Assembly: GCA_049324295.1 (NCBI GenBank)
Contig: JBMOKQ010000043.1
Coordinates: forward strand, 10,746 to 74,745
From: Bacteroidota bacterium
GTDB taxonomy: Bacteria; Bacteroidota; Bacteroidia; Chitinophagales; Chitinophagaceae
DNA length: 64,000 nt
Direction: 5' to 3'
Shown here piece after piece: positions 37,223 to 48,269 of the stretch. Under the pieces are notes generated by a model. That model ran no database searches. It saw only the letters and a program-made list of their open reading frames with translations, and was not told the DNA's origin. The position numbers and the translations under genes were made by a program. Numbering within the stretch: the first letter of the stretch is position 1; each line of letters begins with the position of its first letter.

Positions 37223-37333
37223 ATTTCAAATACGATATACCATTTTGTAAGCTACCTAACATTCGTAAGCCCTCATTTTACATTTTTTTTACAAAAAAGT
37301 CTACTTATTTGGTAGGGAATATATTTTTCCCCT

Positions 37334-37341
37334 TATCTTTG
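37334..37341 (+). promoter_or_regulatory. -7 promoter box (TATCTTTG) of the cys operon
   Basis: TAnnTTTG match just 5' of the riboswitch. Confidence 0.65.
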
Positions 37342-37356
37342 TATCCGTTCTTATAC

Positions 37357-37470
37357 ATCTTATCAAGAAAGGCGGAGGGAATAGGCCCTGTGAAGCCTTG
37401 GCAACCACTTCCGCCTTAGGCCGAAAAAGGTGCCAAATCCGGTCCCGCCTAAAGCGGGAAGAGATAAGTC
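37357..37470 (+). ncRNA. SAM-I (S-box) riboswitch
   Basis: CTTATCAAGA-AAGGCGGAGGGA..GGCCCTGTGAAGCCT-TGGCAACC...AAGGTGCCAAATCC...GAGATAAG consensus upstream of sulfur genes. Confidence 0.93.
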
Positions 37471-37500
37471 AGTCTTCTTATACAGCAACTGTAACAATAC

Positions 37501-37535
37501 AAGGCATTCTGACTGAGCATCGATTGCCTTTTTTT
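37501..37535 (+). terminator. Riboswitch expression-platform terminator
   Basis: AAGGCA...TGCCTT plus a T-tract downstream of the aptamer. Confidence 0.55.
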
Positions 37536-37566
37536 ATAAGATGCCTGGAACGATATAAACAAGCGT

Positions 37567-37644
37567 ATGCAATTCAACAACATGAAACACTTATCAATCG
37601 CAGATGGTTATAGCTGTTGTTGTGCCTGTATTAAACTGAACTGA
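37567..37644 (+). CDS. Putative Cys-rich leader peptide MQFNNMKHLSIADGYSCCCACIKLN
   Basis: Hand translation; TGT TGT TGT GCC TGT; ends 49 nt before cysH; alternative ATG at 37582. Confidence 0.5.
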   Translation: MQFNNMKHLSIADGYSCCCACIKLN

Positions 37645-37693
37645 TATTGTTCATACCTGTTCTTGCCGGTTTTTATCGATCCAAACAAAAATT

Positions 37694-38434
37694 ATGTCAC
37701 AAGTTCTCAATAGCAGCATAGCTGCGAATGTACAACAGCAAATAAGGGGTCGCTCCATCGAAGAGGCGATTGCATTGATGGTGGCTACCTATCCTGCTGC
37801 TGTTACCTTTTCAACCAGTTTTAGTTACGAGGACCAGGTGATAACAGATATTATTCACAGTAATCATTTCCCTGTATCCTTGTTTACACTAGATACGGGC
37901 CGTCTTTTTCCGGAAACCTATAGTACCTGGAGCCGTACGCTGGAGTTTTATAAAACCAGCATCAAAGCATATTATCCGGATGCGCAGGCATTGTCTGATT
38001 ATATTGAAACCAATGGCCCCAATGCATTTTATGATTCACCTGAACTCAGGTTGGCCTGTTGTACCATCAGAAAAGTAATACCCTTACAAAAAGCATTGTC
38101 TGGTAACGCTGTCTGGATAACGGGTTTAAGAGCCGAACATTCACCGGCGCGCCAGGACCTTACAACAATTGAATGGGATGTAACAAACCAGGTAATAAAA
38201 TATCATCCATTATTAAACTGGACAACAGAGGAAGTAAAACAGTATATCCATCAAAAAGCAATTCCTTATAATCCTTTACACGATAAAGGTTTTGTAAGTA
38301 TTGGTTGTGCACCTTGTACAAGGGCCATTAAACCGGGGGAAGATTTCAGGGCAGGCCGTTGGTGGTGGGAAGACAATAGTAAAAAAGAATGTGGATTGCA
38401 TTCACATGCAACAAAAACAACAACAGCAGTATGA
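37694..38434 (+). CDS. cysH: Assimilatory APS/PAPS reductase; 4Fe-4S APS-reductase type
   Basis: FSTSF, LDTGRLF, ACCTIRKV (CC), SIGCAPCT (CxxC), RAGRW, KECGLH. Confidence 0.95.
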   Translation: MSQVLNSSIAANVQQQIRGRSIEEAIALMVATYPAAVTFSTSFSYEDQVITDIIHSNHFPVSLFTLDTGRLFPETYSTWSRTLEFYKTSIKAYYPDAQALSDYIETNGPNAFYDSPELRLACCTIRKVIPLQKALSGNAVWITGLRAEHSPARQDLTTIEWDVTNQVIKYHPLLNWTTEEVKQYIHQKAIPYNPLHDKGFVSIGCAPCTRAIKPGEDFRAGRWWWEDNSKKECGLHSHATKTTTAV

Positions 38435-39339
38435 GTGCGTACAGATTAGATTATCTCGATCAGTTAGAATCGGAAGCCATACATATTATGCGTGAAGTGG
38501 CGGGGCAATTCGAAAAACCTGCTTTACTATTCAGTGGCGGTAAAGATTCCATTACCCTGGTACACCTGGCGCTGAAAGCCTTTCGTCCGGGTAAATTTCC
38601 TTTTCCACTGGTACATATTGATACGGGGCATAATTTTCCGGAAGCCTTGCAGTTCAGGGATGAGCTGGCGTTAACTATTGGTGAAAAACTGGTGGTGCGT
38701 AAGGTAGAAGATACCATTAAGTCAAAACAATTAACTGAACCCAAAGGAAAATTTGCAAGCAGAAATGCATTACAGACATACACTTTACTCGATACCATTG
38801 AGGAGTTTGGTTTTGATGCATGTATCGGAGGTGCCCGCCGCGATGAGGAGAAAGCAAGGGCCAAAGAAAGAATATTTTCTGTAAGAGATGAGTTCGGTCA
38901 ATGGAATCCCAAACTGCAGCGTCCTGAATTATGGAATACGTACAACGGGCGTATCAGTAAAGGAGAAAATGTGCGGGTGTTTCCCATCAGTAACTGGACC
39001 GAACTGGATGTCTGGAACTACATCAAAAGAGAAAACATTGCATTACCCTCCATTTACTTTGCGCACGAACGCACGGTATTGGAACATGAAGGACAGTTGA
39101 TTGCTTTATCTGAGTTTATACAACTGGATGATACCGATTCAATTGTTACTAAAAAAGTACGTTACCGTACAGTGGGCGATATGACCTGTACCGCAGCCGT
39201 AGAATCAGATGCTACAGGTATAGATGATATCATCAGGGAAATTACCGCTACTAAAACCAGTGAACGTGGCGAAACAAGAATTGATGATAAAGTAAGTGAA
39301 GCAGCGATGGAAGACAGAAAAAAGAATGGTTATTTCTAA
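38431..39339 (+). CDS. cysD: Sulfate adenylyltransferase subunit 2
   Basis: LFSGGKDS, GGARRDEEKARAKER, VFPISNW, RYRTVGD, RKKNGYF. Confidence 0.97.
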   Translation: MSAYRLDYLDQLESEAIHIMREVAGQFEKPALLFSGGKDSITLVHLALKAFRPGKFPFPLVHIDTGHNFPEALQFRDELALTIGEKLVVRKVEDTIKSKQLTEPKGKFASRNALQTYTLLDTIEEFGFDACIGGARRDEEKARAKERIFSVRDEFGQWNPKLQRPELWNTYNGRISKGENVRVFPISNWTELDVWNYIKRENIALPSIYFAHERTVLEHEGQLIALSEFIQLDDTDSIVTKKVRYRTVGDMTCTAAVESDATGIDDIIREITATKTSERGETRIDDKVSEAAMEDRKKNGYF

Positions 39340-39349
39340 AACAAAACAC

Positions 39350-40591
39350 ATGGACTTACTCCGATTTATAACAGCAGGCAGTGTAGACGATGGTAAATCG
39401 ACCCTGATAGGTCGTTTATTATACGACAGTAAATCAATTATGATTGATCACCTGGAGGCACTGGAAAAACAAAGCAAAAACAAGGAAGATGGTGAGATAG
39501 ATCTTGCACTGCTTACCGATGGCTTACGCGCAGAAAGAGAGCAGGGAATAACTATTGATGTAGCGTATAAATATTTCGCCACACCCAAACGCAAATTTAT
39601 TATTGCTGACGCACCGGGTCATGTGCAATATACCCGTAATATGGTAACGGGTGCATCTAATTCAGACCTCGCTATCATTCTTATTGATGCCAGGCAAGGT
39701 GTGGTGGAACAAACGAGAAGACATTCCATCATTGCATCGCTCTTAAACATTCCACATATTGTTGTGGCCATTAACAAAATGGACCTGGTGAATTACGCGC
39801 AGGATGTGTACAACAATATTGTAATTGACTATGCAGATGTGGCAAAAAAACTGGGACTTAAAGATGTACGTTATATACCCATCAGTGCATTAAACGGAGA
39901 TAATATTGTTGAGAGAACAGAAGCACTCACCTGGTACGAAGGACCTTCACTGCTTGAAATACTGGAAACTGTAGAGCTGGCCGATGATATAGATTTAGTG
40001 AAAGCCCGTTTTCCGGTACAATATGTAATACGTCCGCAAACAGAAGACTTACACGATTATCGTGGGTATGCCGGAAAAATAAACAGTGGTATCTATAAAA
40101 AAGGAGATAAGGTAACTGTGTTACCTGCCGGTATCAGCAGTACCATCAAAGCAATTGAACACAATGGGAAAGAGGTAGCAACAGCATTTGCCCCGCAAAG
40201 TGTAGTAATACATTTGGAAGATGATATTGATATCGGCCGCGGTGACCTGATTGTACAAAATGAAAATCAGCCAAAAGTTACCAATGAAATAGAAGCCTTA
40301 TTGTGCTGGATGGATCAGAAAGCATTGGTACCGGGTAATAAATACTTATTACAGATCAACAGTAAACAGGTACGTTCGGTAGTAAAAGAAGTAAGTTATA
40401 AGCTGGATGTACATACACTGGAACAGATTGCGTCACCCGCAACTGTATCCTTGAATGATATTGTAAAAGTAACGATCAAAACAGCTGGACCTGTGGCTTA
40501 CGATGCTTACCAGGAACTGAGAACCAATGGTGGCGCTATTTTAATTGATGAAACGAGTCATGTAACCGTTGGGGCATGTATGATTCAATAA
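39350..40591 (+). CDS. cysN: Sulfate adenylyltransferase subunit 1 (GTPase), no APS-kinase fusion
   Basis: GSVDDGKSTLIGRLL, EREQGITIDVAY, DAPGH, NKMD. Confidence 0.97.
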   Translation: MDLLRFITAGSVDDGKSTLIGRLLYDSKSIMIDHLEALEKQSKNKEDGEIDLALLTDGLRAEREQGITIDVAYKYFATPKRKFIIADAPGHVQYTRNMVTGASNSDLAIILIDARQGVVEQTRRHSIIASLLNIPHIVVAINKMDLVNYAQDVYNNIVIDYADVAKKLGLKDVRYIPISALNGDNIVERTEALTWYEGPSLLEILETVELADDIDLVKARFPVQYVIRPQTEDLHDYRGYAGKINSGIYKKGDKVTVLPAGISSTIKAIEHNGKEVATAFAPQSVVIHLEDDIDIGRGDLIVQNENQPKVTNEIEALLCWMDQKALVPGNKYLLQINSKQVRSVVKEVSYKLDVHTLEQIASPATVSLNDIVKVTIKTAGPVAYDAYQELRTNGGAILIDETSHVTVGACMIQ

Positions 40592-40600
40592 CAATCAACT

Positions 40601-41434
40601 ATGTCAGAAGAAATTTTTATACAGCAACTGTTTCAACGTAACAGAAAATCGTACCAGGCTTTTCCGGATAAGGTATTGGTGGAAAATTTTATTGATGACC
40701 TGTTCAATTTTTTGTTTGGTTCATATGAAAAGAAATTCAATTCAGCAGAAAAACTCTCTGCAGAATACCATGAATTGCGTCATACTTTTTCGGCTATATT
40801 GTTTGAGGTAATCAGGGAAGAGAAAAAAGTAAAAGAGCATACCAGTAGTTTTTTCAATGCGTTACCATCACTTTACAAAGCCCTGTTGGAAGATGCTGAC
40901 GCAGTATTGGCATTTGATCCGGCTGCACAATCTATTGAAGAAGTGTTGGTGGCTTATCCGGGCTTTTATGCAACAGCTATTTATCGTCTGTCGAACCAGT
41001 TATACCGTCAGCAGATAAAAACACTACCCCGGTTGTTTTCGGAATATGCACACAGTAAAACGGGGATAGATATTCATCCCGGAGCTGTTATTGGTACATC
41101 ATTTGCGATTGATCATGGAACAGGTATTGTAATAGGAGAAACAACAGTTATTGGTGAGCGGGTAAAAATATACCAGGGTGTAACACTCGGCGCATTGAAT
41201 GTAGATAAGGAACTGGCCAGTACCAAGCGTCATCCAACCATTGAAGATGATGTGATCATTTATTCGGGTGCCACTATTTTAGGAGGTGGAACCGTAATTG
41301 GGGCAGGCAGTATTATTGGTGGTAATATCTGGCTTACACACAGCGTGGCAGCTAATTCTGTTGTATACCATAAGAGCGAAATAAAAATAAAAGATAAAGA
41401 CCCTTTTCCTGAACCACTAAATTTTGTGATTTAA
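40601..41434 (+). CDS. cysE: Serine O-acetyltransferase
   Basis: [33 protein letters not shown] hexapeptide repeats. Confidence 0.95.
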
Positions 41435-41444
41435 AAAAAATACA

Positions 41445-42356
41445 ATGAAGGCAAACAGCATTTTAGCAACAATTGGTAATACACCACATGTACGCATCAA
41501 TAAACTTTTTGGTAATAAGCATGAAGTATGGTTAAAACTGGAAAAAAATAATCCGGGTAACAGTATTAAAGACCGTATTGCATTGTCGATGATTGAAGAT
41601 GCGGAGCAAAAAGGGTTACTGAATAAAGACAGTGTAATTATTGAACCTACCAGTGGTAACACCGGTATTGGTCTGGCACTGGTAGCTGCTGTAAAAGGCT
41701 ATAAGATTATTCTTGTAATGCCGGAGAGCATGAGTATTGAACGCAGGCGACTGATGGCTTTATATGGTGCGGAGTTTGTACTTACACCCCGTGAAAAAGG
41801 AATGAAAGGAGCTATCGAAAAAGCAACAGAATTAACACAAACCACACCCAATGCGTGGATGCCACAACAATTCGATAACCCGGCCAACACTGAAATACAC
41901 AGAAAAACAACAGCACAGGAAATACTGGCCGATTTTCCGGAAGGACTTGATTATATTATTACCGGTGTGGGTACCGGCGGACATATAACCGGCGTTGCAG
42001 AAATACTGAAAGAAAAATTCCCGGCACTGAAAGTATTTGCAGTAGAACCGGAATTGTCGCCCGTGTTAAGTGGTGGCGCACCATCTCCACACCCATTACA
42101 GGGAATCGGTGCCGGTTTTGTACCCTCTATTTTAAATACCAGCGTATTGGATGGAATTATACAGGTAGGTAAAGAGGAGGCATTCTCTTTTGCACAAAGA
42201 GCCGCAAAAGAAGAAGGTATTTTATTAGGCGTATCATCAGGCGCGTCACTGGCAGCAGTGGCAAAAAAATTACCTGAAATACCTGCCGGATCAAAAGTAC
42301 TCACCTTTAATTATGATACAGGTGAAAGGTATTTATCAATAGAAGGGTTATTCTAA
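41445..42356 (+). CDS. cysK: Cysteine synthase A
   Basis: [14 protein letters not shown] (PLP Lys), [23 protein letters not shown]. Confidence 0.97.
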
Positions 42357-42359
42357 ATC

Positions 42360-42397
42360 TTTTCCTTACCCCGGATTTAAATCCGGGGTAAGGAAAA
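42360..42397. repeat. Perfect 38-bp palindrome centred on ATTTAAAT
   Basis: TTTTCCTTACCCCGGATTTAAATCCGGGGTAAGGAAAA. Confidence 0.9.
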
Positions 42398-42453
42398 AAG
42401 AGAAAATAAGTTCTCTTTTTTTAGGCAATAATAATCTACTAAAAAAGTAGACA

Positions 42454-43308
42454 ATGAGCAAGCAACAAACATATGGAAAAGTCATTCTCGCATCAGCAGG
42501 TCCTGGCGATCCGGAACTGGTTACAGTTAAAACTGCTCGCTGGTTGTCACAGGCCGATATTGTGTTGACAGATCGTTTGGTGAGCCCGGAAATACTCAGC
42601 AATTACGTTAATAAAAATGCTGAGATCATTTATGTAGGGAAACAATGTAGAAGGGGAATTTCCACACCACAGCAAACCATTAATGAATTACTGGTTGAGT
42701 ATGCATCAAAATATGAGGTAGTGGTTCGTTTGAAAGGTGGCGATACCAGTATTTTTTCCAATGTACTGGATGAACTGGAAACATTGGTACAGTATCAGGT
42801 ACCTTATGAAATTGTTCCAGGGGTAACGGCTGCATTGGGCGCAGCTGCCTATGCAGGTATTCCCTTAACGGCAAGAGGCTTATCGGTAGGGGTTCGTTTA
42901 CTTACTTATTATAAATCAGATATTGTTGCCGCTGAAACCTGGAAAGAACTGGCACAAACAGATGATACCCTGGTATTTTATATGTCGGGCGAAACATTAT
43001 CAACAGTTGTACAACAACTAACCCAACATGGTATTGATGCGGCAAAAAAACTGGCAGTTATAGAACAGGCCACTACGCCTTTACAACAAATTCATACCTG
43101 TAATCTTTATCAATACACAGAACAGTTAAAAGATAAAACCTTCCGTTCACCGTCACTGGTTATTATTGGTAAGGTAGTAGCCCTGCATGAACAGTTTGCC
43201 TGGCTGCCGGATATAAGTAGTACAGAACATTATTTTACGCCGCTTACGGGCCGGCTTACGCAGTTAGAAGAAACACCCACAAAAAAGAGACATGTTAGCA
43301 GAGCCTAA
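42454..43308 (+). CDS. cobA: Uroporphyrinogen-III C-methyltransferase
   Basis: AGPGDPELVT, VVRLKGGD, VPGVTAA, AGIPLT, FYM. Confidence 0.94.
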   Translation: MSKQQTYGKVILASAGPGDPELVTVKTARWLSQADIVLTDRLVSPEILSNYVNKNAEIIYVGKQCRRGISTPQQTINELLVEYASKYEVVVRLKGGDTSIFSNVLDELETLVQYQVPYEIVPGVTAALGAAAYAGIPLTARGLSVGVRLLTYYKSDIVAAETWKELAQTDDTLVFYMSGETLSTVVQQLTQHGIDAAKKLAVIEQATTPLQQIHTCNLYQYTEQLKDKTFRSPSLVIIGKVVALHEQFAWLPDISSTEHYFTPLTGRLTQLEETPTKKRHVSRA

Positions 43309-44983
43309 ACTGAAAATATTAGCTGATTTAATCGGCCAGCTCAATAAAGAAGAATTGATCTGGGTAAATGGATATTTGTCTGGTCTTGTTGCAGAACCCA
43401 TTACGCAAACATCAGTAGCCATTAATGCTGCAGCTGCAAAAAAACTAACCATCGCCTATGGCACAGAAACCGGCAATTCAAAAAAACTGGCCACAGATTT
43501 TGCATCAAAAGCAAAAAAGAAGGGTATTCAAACCAAACTAGTAAGTCTCGATCAGTATAAGCTTACTGAATTACCAAAAGAAGAATATTTTGTTACTGTT
43601 ATCAGTACACAGGGTGATGGAGAGCCGCCTGTAGCCGCACAAAAATTTTATGACCATATTCATAATAACGGTTTTAAGCTGCAGCAACTAAAATATGGTG
43701 TACTTGCATTGGGTGATACAGCTTATCCCATGTTTTGCAAAACAGGAGAAGATGTAGACAAGCAGTTACAGTACCTGGGTGGAGAAAGAATTGCAGGTCT
43801 GCAAAAATGTGATCTTGATTATGAAAATACCGCCCAACAGTGGTTTGATACTGTTTTACAGCAACTGCATACTACCGAAAAAACTACCATAGCAATCAAA
43901 ACTCCTGTGGAAGAAAAAAAACCGGCAGGAAAATTATACTACGATGGGGTTGTACAATCAAATATTAACCTGGCGGCAACAGGGTCTTCAAAAAATATAT
44001 ATCATATTGAACTGGTGGCGGATGGAGTAGGGTTTTTTTCGGGTGATTCAATCGGTATTGTTCCCGGGAATGATGTATTGCTGGTAGATCGGTTATTGCA
44101 ACTGGTATCGATAGATGGAAATAAAACGATTAGCTGGAAAAATGAAACAGCATCGATAAGAGAACTGCTGATTTCAAAAATCAATATCAGTTACCTGTTG
44201 GAAAAATCTGTAAAGTATTATGCCACAATCAGTGGTTATGAAATTCCTGCCTTTAAAACAGATCTTTTATCGTTGGTAAAACAATATCCATTATCCAGAC
44301 CTGAACTATTTGAACAAATTATTGAGGGGCTCACACAGATAGTGCCACGTATTTATAATATTTCTTCTTCCCCTGCTGCACATAATGGAGAAGTACACAT
44401 TACTGTGTTGCGGGATGTATTTAAAAAAGACGAACAGGAACAAACCGGTTTGTGTACACAGTTTTTGGAAAATAAAAAAGAAGGAGATACCGTACGGTTT
44501 TTTATTCAGGGCAATAAAAAATTTCGCTTACCCGCACAGGATAAAGATATCATTATGATAGGTCCGGGTACAGGTATTGCACCATTCCGTTCATTTGTAG
44601 CAGAACGTGATGCAGTAGCAGCAAGTGGAAAAAACTGGTTGTTCTTCAGCGAGGATCAGTTTACCACTGATTTTTTATACCAAACCGAATGGCAAAGCTG
44701 GTTTGAAACAGATGTGCTTACAAGAGTAACCCTTGCATTTCAGAATGGTATTTCAGATGCACCAACACTGGCTGATAAATTGATAGAACAGGGAGCGGAA
44801 TTATTTGCATGGCTCGAAGCGGGGGCATCGCTATACCTCTGCGGAGAAAAAGAACCGGCAGGCAAAGCCATTGAACAAGCTTTAATAAAAGTATTCCAAA
44901 CCCAAACCGGAGATGAAGCAGCCGCTAATGCATACTTCGAAAAACTTAAAAAGGAAAATCGTTACGTAAAAGACCTCTATTAA
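43292..44983 (+). CDS. cysJ: Sulfite reductase flavoprotein subunit (diflavin)
   Basis: YGTETGNS, STQGDGEPP flavodoxin domain, R.YNISSS, MIGPGTGIAPFRSF, DFLYQTEW. Confidence 0.88.
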   Translation: MLAEPKLKILADLIGQLNKEELIWVNGYLSGLVAEPITQTSVAINAAAAKKLTIAYGTETGNSKKLATDFASKAKKKGIQTKLVSLDQYKLTELPKEEYFVTVISTQGDGEPPVAAQKFYDHIHNNGFKLQQLKYGVLALGDTAYPMFCKTGEDVDKQLQYLGGERIAGLQKCDLDYENTAQQWFDTVLQQLHTTEKTTIAIKTPVEEKKPAGKLYYDGVVQSNINLAATGSSKNIYHIELVADGVGFFSGDSIGIVPGNDVLLVDRLLQLVSIDGNKTISWKNETASIRELLISKINISYLLEKSVKYYATISGYEIPAFKTDLLSLVKQYPLSRPELFEQIIEGLTQIVPRIYNISSSPAAHNGEVHITVLRDVFKKDEQEQTGLCTQFLENKKEGDTVRFFIQGNKKFRLPAQDKDIIMIGPGTGIAPFRSFVAERDAVAASGKNWLFFSEDQFTTDFLYQTEWQSWFETDVLTRVTLAFQNGISDAPTLADKLIEQGAELFAWLEAGASLYLCGEKEPAGKAIEQALIKVFQTQTGDEAAANAYFEKLKKENRYVKDLY

Positions 44984-45050
44984 AAATAAACTATTCTCCA
45001 AAGAAGTCCTTCGGACACGATTAACCATTCACGAATCACGAACCACATCT

Positions 45051-46709
45051 ATGTCAAATAACAAACCCTCCCCCATTGAAAAAATAAAAACCTCCAGTAA
45101 AGGTCTTCGTGGCACATTACAGGAGAGTTTAACGGATGAAATTACCGGTGCCGTTCGTGAACAGGATCATGCATTGATTAAGTTTCATGGAATGTATGAA
45201 CAGGATGACCGCGATTTGCGTGAGGAACGTGCCGCTAAAAAACTGGATAAATTGTATTCATTTATGATCAGGTTGCGTATACCCGGGGGGTATATGAAAG
45301 CCGATCAATGGGTGGCGGCACACCATATTGCGGGAAGCTATTCCACCGGTGTTATTAAAATTACCACCAGGCAAACCATACAATTGCATGGTATTTTAAA
45401 GCACCAGATAAAACCAACACTCAAAGATTTTAATGCGGTGCATCTTGATTCCATTGCAGCCTGTGGCGACGTAAACAGGAACGTGGCCTGTACCAGTCAT
45501 CCTTCTGAATCGGCTATTCATGAAGAAGTACATGCATATGCCGATAAAATAAGCCGTTTGTTATTACCTAAAACAAGGGCTTTTTATGAAATATGGCTCG
45601 ATGAAGAAAAAATTGCGGAGTATGATGAAACCGATCCATTGTACCAGGATCGTTACCTGCCCCGAAAATTTAAAATCGGTATAGCCATACCACCCAATAA
45701 TGATGTGGATGTATTGACCAATGATTTGGGATTGATAGCCGTTATTGAAAATGACAAACTCATCGGTTTTAATATTGCTGTAGGAGGTGGCTTGTCAACC
45801 ACACATGGTAACCCCGATACTTATGCAAGACTGGCTACTGTAATTGGTTTTACGGCAGGTGAAGAGCAAACATTAAAAGCAGTGTATGAAGTGTTGACCA
45901 TACAAAGAGATTTTGGTAACCGTTCCGATCGTAAACTGGCGCGATTAAAATATACGCTCGATAAAATGGGTGTAGATACATTCAGAAAAGAATTAGAACA
46001 ACGTTGTGGTTTTAAACTGGAAGAAATAAAATCATACAAGTTTACAGAAAGAATAGATCGTTATGGCTGGCTGGCTGATTATAAAGGCAACTGGCATTAT
46101 ACATTGTTTGTAGAAAACGGAAGGGTAACTGATGAGGCCGATGTTCCGTTAAAGACAGCACTTCTGGAGCTGGCGGAAACAGGTAAATTGATTTTCCGTT
46201 TTACGAGTAACCAGAACCTGATATTGAGTGAGATTCGTCCAGACGATAAACCATTCATTGAAACAATGTTGCAGCGATATGGTATTATAGACAGAGATAA
46301 GGCTATCAGTGCCTTGAGAAAAAATGCCATTTCCTGTGTGGCTTTGCCTACCTGTCCGCTTGCGTTAGCAGAAGCACAACGATACCTGCCATCACTCATC
46401 AGTAAAATTGAACCGCTACTGGAAAAACATGCATTAGCAGGTGAAAACATTATTACCAGAATGACCGGTTGCCCGAATGGCTGTGCAAGGCCCTATGCAG
46501 CAGAAATTGGTTTGGTAGGCACCGGGCCGGGACGTTATAATTTTCATTTGGGTGGCGATCGTGAGGGTACACGGCTGAATACTACATATAAGGAACAACT
46601 CGATGAAACGGCCATATTGGCTGAACTTGATATCGTGTTTGAACAATATAACAAAAACAAGAACCAGCATGAAAGTTTCGGTGATTATGTACAAAGGGCC
46701 ATATTATAA
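45051..46709 (+). CDS. cysI: Sulfite reductase hemoprotein subunit
   Basis: KFHGMYEQDDRD, TTRQTIQ, LPRKFK, CVALPTC and TGCPNGC siroheme/4Fe-4S ligands. Confidence 0.96.
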   Translation: MSNNKPSPIEKIKTSSKGLRGTLQESLTDEITGAVREQDHALIKFHGMYEQDDRDLREERAAKKLDKLYSFMIRLRIPGGYMKADQWVAAHHIAGSYSTGVIKITTRQTIQLHGILKHQIKPTLKDFNAVHLDSIAACGDVNRNVACTSHPSESAIHEEVHAYADKISRLLLPKTRAFYEIWLDEEKIAEYDETDPLYQDRYLPRKFKIGIAIPPNNDVDVLTNDLGLIAVIENDKLIGFNIAVGGGLSTTHGNPDTYARLATVIGFTAGEEQTLKAVYEVLTIQRDFGNRSDRKLARLKYTLDKMGVDTFRKELEQRCGFKLEEIKSYKFTERIDRYGWLADYKGNWHYTLFVENGRVTDEADVPLKTALLELAETGKLIFRFTSNQNLILSEIRPDDKPFIETMLQRYGIIDRDKAISALRKNAISCVALPTCPLALAEAQRYLPSLISKIEPLLEKHALAGENIITRMTGCPNGCARPYAAEIGLVGTGPGRYNFHLGGDREGTRLNTTYKEQLDETAILAELDIVFEQYNKNKNQHESFGDYVQRAIL

Positions 46710-46730
46710 ACCAGGTGTATTAAAACTATT

Positions 46731-48269
46731 GTGATGCAAATGACCATAGCAGCAATTGAACAGAAATTGTCCGGAACGGAATGCAGGGTATCCCGACAGA
46801 ATCATTTGTTTCCTGTTTTTATTCAACTGGAAAGGATGCGTGTGTTGATAATAGGAGGCGGACCGGTAGCTTTTGAAAAATTGCAAACCGTATTGAATAA
46901 CGCGCCCGCCACAAGGGTTAAAATAGTGGCTAAAGCATTTGATGAAGAACTGACTTTACTGGCAGAAAAAAAAGAACAAGTGGCATTGGTGCAAAAAGGC
47001 TATTCTTCCGGAGATTTGTACGATGCCGATATAGTTATTGTTGCAGTAAATGATATTACTACTGCAGAAGAAATTCGTAACGATGCAAAAGCCAGGAAGC
47101 TATTGGTGAATGTGGCTGATAAACCTGCTTTATGCGATTTTTATCTTGGCTCGGTGGTACAAAAAGGAAATCTTAAACTGGCCATTTCCACGAACGGAAA
47201 GTCCCCCACCATTGCCAAACGGCTAAAAGAAACATTACAGGAATCATTACCGCCTGAACTCGACCAGGTACTGGATCAGATGCAACTCATCAGGAATAAA
47301 ATTGGAGGAGATTTTTCTTATAAAGTAAAAAAATTAAATGAAATAACAGCCGTGTTAGCGGCAACGGATAAGAGGAACCCGACAGTTGCTGAACAGCGAT
47401 GGAAAAAAATAGCATCCATTTTTTTGTTTGCTTTCTTCTTTATGTTTATTGGCCATCTTGTTCTTTCCTATGTTCCATTCGCACAATTGTTTACAGAATC
47501 AAAAGAACTGGTAGCATCTTTAGACAGTACGTTTTACTGGATGATACTGGCAGGTTTTCTGGCGCAGTTGGTAGATGGTTTGCTGGGAATGGGTTATGGT
47601 GTGGTATCAGCAACTGTGCTCCTTTCTCTGGGTATTAAATTACCTGCTATCAGCGGAAGTATTCATACGGCCGAAATGTTTTCGAGTGCAGCCTCAGGTT
47701 ATAGTCATTATCGTTTTGGCAACGTTAATAAAAAATTATTCAAAGCATTACTGATTCCCGGGGTACTTGGCGCCATATTGGGTGCAGTCGCTTTATCGAA
47801 ATTATCGGATCATTATTCGGGTTTTGTAAAACCTGTTTTGGCAGCGTACACGCTATTCCTTGGCTTAAGGATATTGAGAACAGGCTTCAAAAAAATAAAT
47901 AGACCAAAGAAATTCCGTAAAGTAGGCTGGCTGGGTGCAGCAGGTGGCTTTCTTGATTCTTTTGGTGGTGGTGGATGGGGACCATTGGTTACGAGTACAC
48001 TCATATTAAAAGGGAAAACACCCCGCTATGTAATTGGTTCAGTAAGTATTGTTGAGTTTTTTGTTACGCTGGCAAGTGCAGCAACCTTCTTTTCTTTATT
48101 AGGAATATCTCACTGGCCCATTATTGCCGGATTGATTATTGGCGGTGTTATTGCAGCTCCTATTGCAGCAAGACTTACGGGTAAATTACCATTGAAGACA
48201 ATGTTTATTGCAGTAGGTATAATGGTTATTATCTGGAGTATGCGTATACTGATTAATTCATTCCTGTAA
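46731..48269 (+). CDS. Fusion of precorrin-2 dehydrogenase/sirohydrochlorin ferrochelatase (CysG N-terminal/Met8-like) and a TauE/SafE transporter
   Basis: LFPVF, IGGGPVA, NVADKP..CDF, ISTNGKSP; then VDGLLGMGYG and GGGGWGP TauE motifs. Confidence 0.88.
   Translation: MMQMTIAAIEQKLSGTECRVSRQNHLFPVFIQLERMRVLIIGGGPVAFEKLQTVLNNAPATRVKIVAKAFDEELTLLAEKKEQVALVQKGYSSGDLYDADIVIVAVNDITTAEEIRNDAKARKLLVNVADKPALCDFYLGSVVQKGNLKLAISTNGKSPTIAKRLKETLQESLPPELDQVLDQMQLIRNKIGGDFSYKVKKLNEITAVLAATDKRNPTVAEQRWKKIASIFLFAFFFMFIGHLVLSYVPFAQLFTESKELVASLDSTFYWMILAGFLAQLVDGLLGMGYGVVSATVLLSLGIKLPAISGSIHTAEMFSSAASGYSHYRFGNVNKKLFKALLIPGVLGAILGAVALSKLSDHYSGFVKPVLAAYTLFLGLRILRTGFKKINRPKKFRKVGWLGAAGGFLDSFGGGGWGPLVTSTLILKGKTPRYVIGSVSIVEFFVTLASAATFFSLLGISHWPIIAGLIIGGVIAAPIAARLTGKLPLKTMFIAVGIMVIIWSMRILINSFL

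Follow-up and report, generated by a model that had tools for sequence, protein, structure and literature searches.

A conserved cysteine-codon leader ORF in tandem with a SAM-I riboswitch upstream of the Sediminibacterium cysH operon, very probably a cysteine sensor

Organization of the cysH upstream region

We analysed a window of 64,000 nucleotides (the whole stretch of DNA under study, numbered from its first letter), whose host is a Sediminibacterium species of the family Chitinophagaceae. The closest public CysH loci belong to MAGs labelled Sediminibacterium, Chitinophagaceae or, in one record, Chitinophaga pinensis, with 87-91% identity, and the CysH of S. goheungense is 81% identical to that of the window. 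On the forward strand, cysH, for a PAPS/APS reductase, is the first of nine genes (Table 1), the others being cysD, cysN, cysE (for a protein like serine acetyltransferase), cysK, a uroporphyrinogen methylase gene, a cysJ-like flavoprotein gene, a cysI-like sulfite reductase gene, and a sirohaem-synthase-like/TauE fusion. The genes were named from their Pfam domains and gene order, and they are taken to form one operon because they share a strand and are separated by short gaps. The stop codon of cysH overlaps the ATG of cysD (ATGA, 38431-38434), which suggests translational coupling of the first two genes. The final gene (46731-48269, + strand) joins a sirohaem-synthase-like N-terminus (NAD_binding_7, Sirohm_synth_M) to a membrane domain of the TauE/SafE sulfite-exporter family.

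Upstream of the operon lies the likely promoter of the leader transcript, which fits the Bacteroidetes promoter consensus, TTTG / TAnnTTTG. A segment homologous to this promoter, 'aaaaaagtctac...ttatctttg', stands immediately 5' of the leader in relatives that have no riboswitch, for example at locus L025. Downstream of the promoter we found a SAM-I (S-box) riboswitch, which scores far above the gathering score of its family (44.4 bits) and is followed by a terminator as its expression platform. The terminator hairpin has a predicted stability of -8.2 kcal/mol and is kept in relatives; by eye, TCAGTC at 37470-37475 could pair with its complement GACTGA in the loop of the terminator to form an antiterminator.

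Table 1. Features of the cysH upstream region and operon, in window coordinates
Feature	Position	Strand	Details or basis
Likely promoter of the leader transcript	37299..37341	+	TTTG (-33-like) at 37308-37311; TATCTTTG (-7-like) at 37334-37341
GTCTAC...GGTAG element, upstream part of the likely promoter	37299-37317	+	Read from the sequence
SAM-I (S-box) riboswitch aptamer	37357..37470	+	RF00162, 87.3 bits, E 5.7e-20, full model 1-108
Riboswitch expression platform, terminator	37501..37535	+	Hairpin 37501-37530 (AAGGCA...TGCCTT), then T7 ending at 37535
Arm A, 5' of the leader, -21..-7 of ATG 37567	37546..37560	+	Predicted pairing with the cysH start region
Leader ORF, 25 codons, MQFNNMKHLSIADGYSCCCACIKLN	37567..37644	+	ATG 37567, TGA 37642-37644
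CAACAACA box, 5' half of the leader	37575..37582	+	Complementary to Cys codons 37615-37622
Putative regulatory Cys codons, TGT TGT TGT GCC TGT	37615..37629	+	Read from the sequence
Spacer from leader stop to cysH ATG, 49 nt	37645..37693	+	No intrinsic terminator
Arm D, -25..-11 of the cysH start codon	37669..37683	+	Predicted pairing with arm A
cysH (PAPS_reduct), first gene of the operon	starts 37694	+	Pfam
Operon, nine genes, presumed to be regulated	37694..48269	+	Pfam hits and gene order

[quoted passage not shown] The ORF is a short one on the same strand, in the 5' leader of a biosynthetic operon, 49 nt before cysH. A second in-frame ATG at 37582 would give an alternative peptide of 20 aa, MKHLSIADGYSCCCACIKLN, and both ATGs are invariant in the seven closest sequences.

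A profile search detected SAM-I in 27 of the 208 cysH upstream regions, 20 of them with the leader and 7 without it. The carriers of the tandem are the window's Sediminibacterium subclade, Flavisolibacter-like loci and a Taibaiella genome, and all of these leaders belong to a long type of 23-36 aa, in which several more codons follow the first Cys run. One cultivable strain, S. goheungense DSM 28323 (locus L137), has both SAM-I and a leader. The order of promoter, riboswitch, terminator, leader and cysH is conserved in the 20 regions. Most Sediminibacterium relatives are without the riboswitch, and the leader there starts about 20 nt after the promoter, counted from the -7 box to the ATG. Between riboswitch and leader in the window (37470-37567), no TAnnTTTG motif was seen by eye and no sigma-70-like site was found.

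Conservation of the leader and its recurrence before cysS

Upstream regions were gathered by anchoring on the CysH protein, because a DNA search with 37340-37760 across 41 relatives matched only the riboswitch part. CysH sequences came from 121 genomes of the genus (29 with cysH), 301 genomes of the order (69 with cysH), and 160 further public genome and metagenome loci. Of about 28 usable same-genus loci, 24 have a short ORF with CCC to CCCCCCCC ahead of cysH; these ORFs end 27-56 nt before cysH and hold CCC to CCCCC, for example MNAVNTNMIYKPCCCC, MALSKQLISKRTCCCC and MKQAITTFVQAIMNLLTPAKGFMCCCCCPVQPTRCCND. Cys leaders were also present in genera labelled Flavisolibacter, Puia, Terrimonas, Ginsengibacter and Taibaiella and in other families of the order, and they precede cysH at 108 of 155 public genome and metagenome loci.

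In total, 133 unique regions bear a leader, with runs of 2-8 Cys codons at the equivalent place, and at least three of these codons are consecutive in 96 of them. The leaders are 9-52 aa long (median 21 aa), the median gap to cysH is 56 nt, and in 65 of the 133 the stop codon comes directly after the Cys run. Within the runs, TGT and TGC alternate synonymously (424 vs 217), with TG fixed.

Conservation of the frame and of the Cys run upstream of cysH in Chitinophagaceae, which the initial annotation had named as its first check, is clear. Runs of at least three TGY codons occur in 105 of 208 unique Chitinophagaceae cysH upstream regions on the sense strand, compared with 9 of 208 on the antisense strand. 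An upstream ATG shares the frame of 103 of these 105 runs with no intervening stop, as compared to 7 and 18 in the other two frames. The residues outside the Cys run, the leader length and the flanks vary among relatives. Clustered codons for the very amino acid that the operon makes are therefore kept together with their ORF while other residues, length and flanks drift, a pattern characteristic of regulatory leader peptides.

The leader is dispensable, since four close relatives (L023, L138, L139 and L216) retain the riboswitch and have lost the leader. At these four loci, a repetitive hairpin (gcaagccacaagctgcaagcttcaag ... cttgaagcttgtggcttg) stands in place of the leader ORF between the riboswitch terminator and cysH, and it looks like a small inserted repeat.

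The genome of the window (3.65 Mb, both strands) contains 790 runs of at least three TGY codons, and about 20 of these fall in ATG-initiated ORFs of at most 60 aa outside long ORFs. Two of the latter lie directly upstream of cysteine-related genes, namely cysH and cysS (cysteinyl-tRNA synthetase). The second ORF, MKLKRANICCCCC, was found by this whole-genome scan for Cys-codon runs in short free-standing ORFs; it lies outside the window at G000:C12:19175-19216 (+), 67 nt upstream of cysS (locus L104/L294, about 1392-1433).

For the survey of cysS loci, a first query of 30 residues read from the genome and extended after typical CysRS sequences matched the genome's own cysS product at 91%, and the true sequence was used afterwards. 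Of 30 sampled same-genus genomes, 9 have a poly-Cys leader before cysS; across the order, such leaders stand at 4 of 30 sampled loci, each of the four belonging to the window's own family, and some other genera of that family have similar leaders. The five same-genus genomes with a cysS leader for which both loci could be compared (G048, G069, G080, G087 and G090) all have the cysH operon, and G004, G018 and G019 are without both; this co-occurrence is only an indication, because the genomes are kin.

Because it is conserved across Chitinophagaceae and recurs before cysS, the Cys-rich ORF is very probably a leader peptide that senses cysteine through the ribosome, as judged from comparison of sequences.

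Two further observations were made around cysS and the Cys-codon runs. In most Sediminibacterium and other Chitinophagales (L297-L304, L306-L310 and others; L106-L133), a TAnnTTTG-like -7 box stands only about 5-12 nt before the cysS ATG, which suggests leaderless or nearly leaderless cysS mRNAs where the Cys leader is absent. The genome of the window also holds a 565-nt intergenic repeat in two copies that are 96% identical (G000:C6:2845-3408 and C9:145441-146004), with an internal inverted repeat of 72 nt; it carries an ORF, MNDDRCCCCNHIVVSVY(R/G), and no cysteine gene follows it.

Predicted pairing of the start regions and candidate outputs of the leader

The initial annotation had remarked that no clear intrinsic terminator follows the leader ORF, and this holds: neither a terminator scan of the window nor a comparison of seven relatives revealed a hairpin with a T-run after the leader. 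Rfam at permissive E-values returned only a meaningless GIR1 match. Without an intrinsic terminator, a translational or Rho-dependent output is needed.

For a translational output, we compared the two start regions. In the 40 long leaders, the leader-start region pairs better with the cysH start of its own genome than with those of other genomes (-9.22 vs -7.01 kcal/mol, p<0.0002), and a control with reversed sequence was null. After de-replication the same test gives p=0.005-0.008; as the sequences are phylogenetically related, permutation p-values of this kind overstate independence. In the window, arms A and D form 13 predicted pairs with 2 mismatches, and the extended duplex (37541-37565 with 37664-37688) reaches -17.6 kcal/mol. 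Within the leader, the CAACAACA box forms 8 pairs with the first Cys codons (-9.4 kcal/mol); this pairing is only partly kept in relatives, and an analogous pairing of CAAACAAC with the Cys run appears in a second subgroup.

The consensus folds of the two closest subgroups, whose sequences are unrelated, give the same single long hairpin. Its outer helix joins the leader 5' region to the cysH start region, its middle helix joins the first codons of the leader to the spacer after the stop, and the Cys run lies near the tip. In the first subgroup, 91.7% of cells are paired, and sliding the partners lowers this to 28-45%; changes on both sides are seen in 7 pairs. The subgroups comprise only 7 and 5 similar sequences, with thin covariation inside each, and this support is modest. 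Folds of single sequences were no better than those of shuffled sequences (z -1.06 and z -0.14), and in a global shuffle test of pairing at the cysH start region the median z was only -0.6.

We modelled the effect of ribosomes on this structure. Opening of the cysH start region is predicted to become cheaper, at 3.9 instead of 7.5 kcal/mol, only if the leader is occupied by ribosomes all the way back to its start, as in a queue of three. At equilibrium, a single stalled ribosome leaves the cysH start closed (7.0 to 9.9 kcal/mol), and occupancy of the leader start brings the value to 3.4. Relief by a queue is similar at L051, L024, L142 and L220, and it is absent at L135, L214 and L215 and in the Flavisolibacter-like group. 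Opening of the leader's own start site would cost 9.7 kcal/mol in the window and 6.8-23.6 across the tandem leaders. Since the A:D pairing hides the leader's own start too, the leader would need to be translated during transcription.

The short leaders with a C-terminal run have a different arrangement. Their UGU/UGC repeats are complementary to a ACAACAAC-type box just upstream of the cysH ATG, and variants of the run have matching variants of the box, such as CGUGUUG and CAACACG. Within -35..-1 of cysH, 20% of the short-leader loci have an 8-mer complementary to the Cys codons, vs 1-2% of controls. The run pairs better with its own cysH start than with others (-9.76 vs -8.90 kcal/mol, p=0.0006); this significance is lost after de-replication (p=0.13-0.23), because both partners are nearly invariant. 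The case for pairing of the Cys run in this group is carried instead by the motif enrichment and by a masking model, in which a ribosome footprint over the run lowers the predicted opening cost of the cysH start from about 10 to about 4 kcal/mol at many short-leader loci.

Several further pairings were considered for the window and set aside. Direct pairing of the Cys run with the cysH start was rejected, as the best duplex of the run with the spacer reaches only -5.3 kcal/mol; none of the 40 leaders of the window architecture has an 8-mer complementary to the Cys codons within -35..-1 of cysH. An anti-sequestor pairing of arm A (GAACGATAT) with the post-stop ATATTGTTC (37645-37653, -9.6 kcal/mol), flanked by toeholds for strand displacement, has marginal support (p=0.05) and is weaker than A:D. 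A mimic of the Cys run, CCTGTTCTTGCC at 37657-37668, resembles a motif after the cysS leader and is not conserved in close relatives.

Taken together, our preferred explanation is that the transcript of the cysH-cysDN-cysE-cysK-sulfite reductase operon begins with two sensors in series, first the SAM-I riboswitch, which terminates transcription, and then the Cys leader, whose output passes through the start-region hairpin; as a whole we give this explanation roughly an even chance. At high SAM, transcription would end at 37535, and at low SAM the leader would be transcribed and translated. The peptide would measure the supply of cysteine, as charged tRNA-Cys, through the speed of the ribosome. 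With ample cysteine, the ribosome would pass the four Cys codons and leave at 37644, and the leader RNA would close into the long hairpin, in which arm A with arm D would block the cysH start (which has no Shine-Dalgarno sequence) as well as the leader's own start. With scarce cysteine, a ribosome would stall on the Cys codons, the following ribosomes would queue back to the leader start, and the hairpin would be kept open. The cysH gene would then be translated, and the downstream genes would follow by translational coupling, as at cysH/cysD, and by protection from polarity. The gate would be ON only when SAM and cysteine are both low.

Comparison of genomes shows that the ORF is kept together with its Cys run, and it supports a predicted A:D complementarity that follows each genome's own sequences; that the ORF is translated, that ribosomes stall and queue on it, and how strongly and in which direction this acts are inferred. 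A translational lock by a co-transcriptional A:D hairpin is tentatively the output we prefer, at a little under even chances.

The same cysteine sensor could instead act through Rho-dependent termination, in the style of the tna operon. Once a ribosome had ended the leader normally, the naked spacer, rich in C and poor in G, together with the untranslated 5' part of cysH would load Rho, and a stalled ribosome would mask the site or keep transcription and translation coupled. The spacers of 96 leaders contain 27% C and 11% G, with C exceeding G in 99%, compared with 19% C, 15% G and 60% for the 55 nt upstream of 1,718 ORFs of the same genome. The frequent contact of the Cys run with the stop codon and the absence of an intrinsic terminator point the same way, and Rho is the sole output that could be common to all architectures found. 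A Rho-dependent output has also been proposed for actinobacterial Cys leaders (Seliverstov et al. 2005, PMC1262725). However, the bias in the window's own spacer is modest by eye (C 10/49, G 6/49), its first three Cys codons and the stop have five codons between them, and an A/C-rich spacer is also expected from complementarity to UGU repeats. We consider Rho-dependent termination a serious rival, though rather unlikely as the main output, and the spacer composition speaks for it as much as for pairing; it could act together with the translational lock.

Classical attenuation, with an intrinsic terminator and an antiterminator after the leader, is very unlikely. A T5 run is present at 37670-37674, but no G+C-rich hairpin precedes it, and the closest relatives have GGCTTTTATCG, GCACTTTCATCG and CCATTTTCATTG in place of the T-run.

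It is equally improbable that the UGU repeats act as RNA without being translated, as a structural strand or as a binding site for a protein, with the ORF incidental. The pairing of the Cys run with ACAACA-type boxes in many relatives would suit such an element, but the strong preference for a stop-free ATG frame would not, nor would the variation of T and C at the third codon position with TG fixed, or a stop codon at once or soon after the run.

The high Cys content might also suggest a functional micropeptide, for example a metal-binding one or the precursor of a modified peptide; as only the Cys run is conserved over such a range of lengths, the ORF always lies directly upstream of cysH or cysS, and no modification or export genes were seen adjoining, we regard this as highly improbable. 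A chance ORF without function, for which a short ORF in an AT-rich spacer and unremarkable single-sequence folds might speak, is hardly credible given the conservation with its strand and frame controls and the second copy before cysS.

Relation to known leader systems

A literature search and Rfam yielded no report or family of cysteine leader peptides for Bacteroidota. Cys leader peptides have been predicted in Actinobacteria by Seliverstov et al., and polycysteine sORFs (Ms5788A and others) work in Mycobacterium smegmatis (Canestrari et al. 2020, bioRxiv 10.1101/834739), where a stalled ribosome prevents pairing of the Cys tract that hides the downstream ribosome-binding site (Shine-Dalgarno region). 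Experimental demonstration of cysteine sensing by leader peptides is known only from mycobacteria, and the support for leader function at the present locus is comparative or thermodynamic.

The likeness to the mycobacterial type is considerable. In both, consecutive Cys codons (here CCCAC) lie in a short ORF upstream of cysteine-metabolism genes, a genome has several such loci (cysH and cysS in the present case), a terminator is absent, and translational control is the proposed output. Two cysteine-related loci under one device also resemble the mycobacterial "Cys ribulon", and among short-leader Sediminibacterium relatives, as with Ms5788A, the predicted partner of the Cys codons is the downstream gene's start region. 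On the other hand, the leaders belong to another phylum and share no sequence relationship with the mycobacterial ones. Unlike the leaderless mycobacterial sORFs, the ORF here would begin about 220 nt into the transcript, behind a riboswitch and a terminator. There is no Shine-Dalgarno sequence to hide, and in the window it is not the Cys tract but the region 5' of the leader that is predicted to pair with the cysH start.

The classical leader-peptide transcription attenuators are trpL, hisL, thrL, pheL and pheM-pheST of enterobacteria. As in these, cognate codons stand in a short upstream ORF and are kept while other residues drift, and the placing of cysS under a leader parallels that of pheST under pheM. 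Unlike these, the leader here is not followed by an intrinsic terminator/antiterminator pair. The proposed output is closer to the translational attenuation of ermC and cat, where a stalled leader ribosome remodels the RNA and frees a downstream start site, except that the stall here would come from scarce aminoacyl-tRNA, not from a drug, and the hidden element would be an A-rich start region without Shine-Dalgarno. With tnaC-tnaAB the locus shares a leader ORF followed by a spacer free of terminators, which is C-rich across the family and modestly so in the window, and where a ribosome stalled near the stop could block Rho. Here, in contrast, ribosomes would stall at sense codons because tRNA is scarce, whereas in tnaC the free amino acid causes the stall at the stop codon, and a role for Rho is hypothetical.

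Leaders with two inputs include Salmonella mgtA, with a Mg2+ riboswitch and the proline-codon ORF mgtL, and Bacillus clausii metE, with tandem SAM and AdoCbl riboswitches. The present locus would resemble both in having two sensors in series, each of which could shut the operon off, and it would resemble mgtA in combining a riboswitch with an ORF read by ribosomes. The ligands and the organism are different, and the inputs here would be linked end products, SAM and cysteine, of the pathway that is controlled.

What distinguishes the present case is a phylum without Shine-Dalgarno pairing, the predicted start-to-start pairing, the tandem with SAM-I, and a second leader before cysS. A wider reading, in which Chitinophagaceae would control at least the cysH operon and cysS as a cysteine regulon read by ribosomes, with a co-transcriptional mutual lock of the two start regions in the riboswitch lineages and a SAM/cysteine gate, is speculative and unlikely to hold as a whole; in such a lock, only the ribosome queue behind the one stalled at Cys codons would keep the rod-like hairpin open.

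If the preferred explanation is right, a principle of leader-peptide control would extend to a phylum without Shine-Dalgarno pairing and would show what a "hidden start site" looks like there. The locus would be a clear example of a riboswitch and a ribosome-read ORF in series that integrate SAM and cysteine, two end products of one pathway. The natural series of architectures (pairing of the Cys run with the start, pairing of start with start, with or without a riboswitch) makes both mechanism and evolution testable. The small ORFs before cysH and cysS are unannotated, and annotation of Chitinophagaceae genomes should include them.

As a separate observation on the upstream region, GTCTA / TAGAC half-sites stand around and after the promoter, as in ttGTCTAttgaacagaTAGACtatatttgcctatcatttaaGTAGACtg (37299-37317 in the window; about -60 to -20 of the leader ATG in the relatives L026-L049). 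Among the 208 cysH upstream regions, 27 contain GTCTA-N6-14-TAGAC, a pattern with only 6 occurrences in the window's own genome; it is a candidate transcription-factor site that may add a third layer of control.
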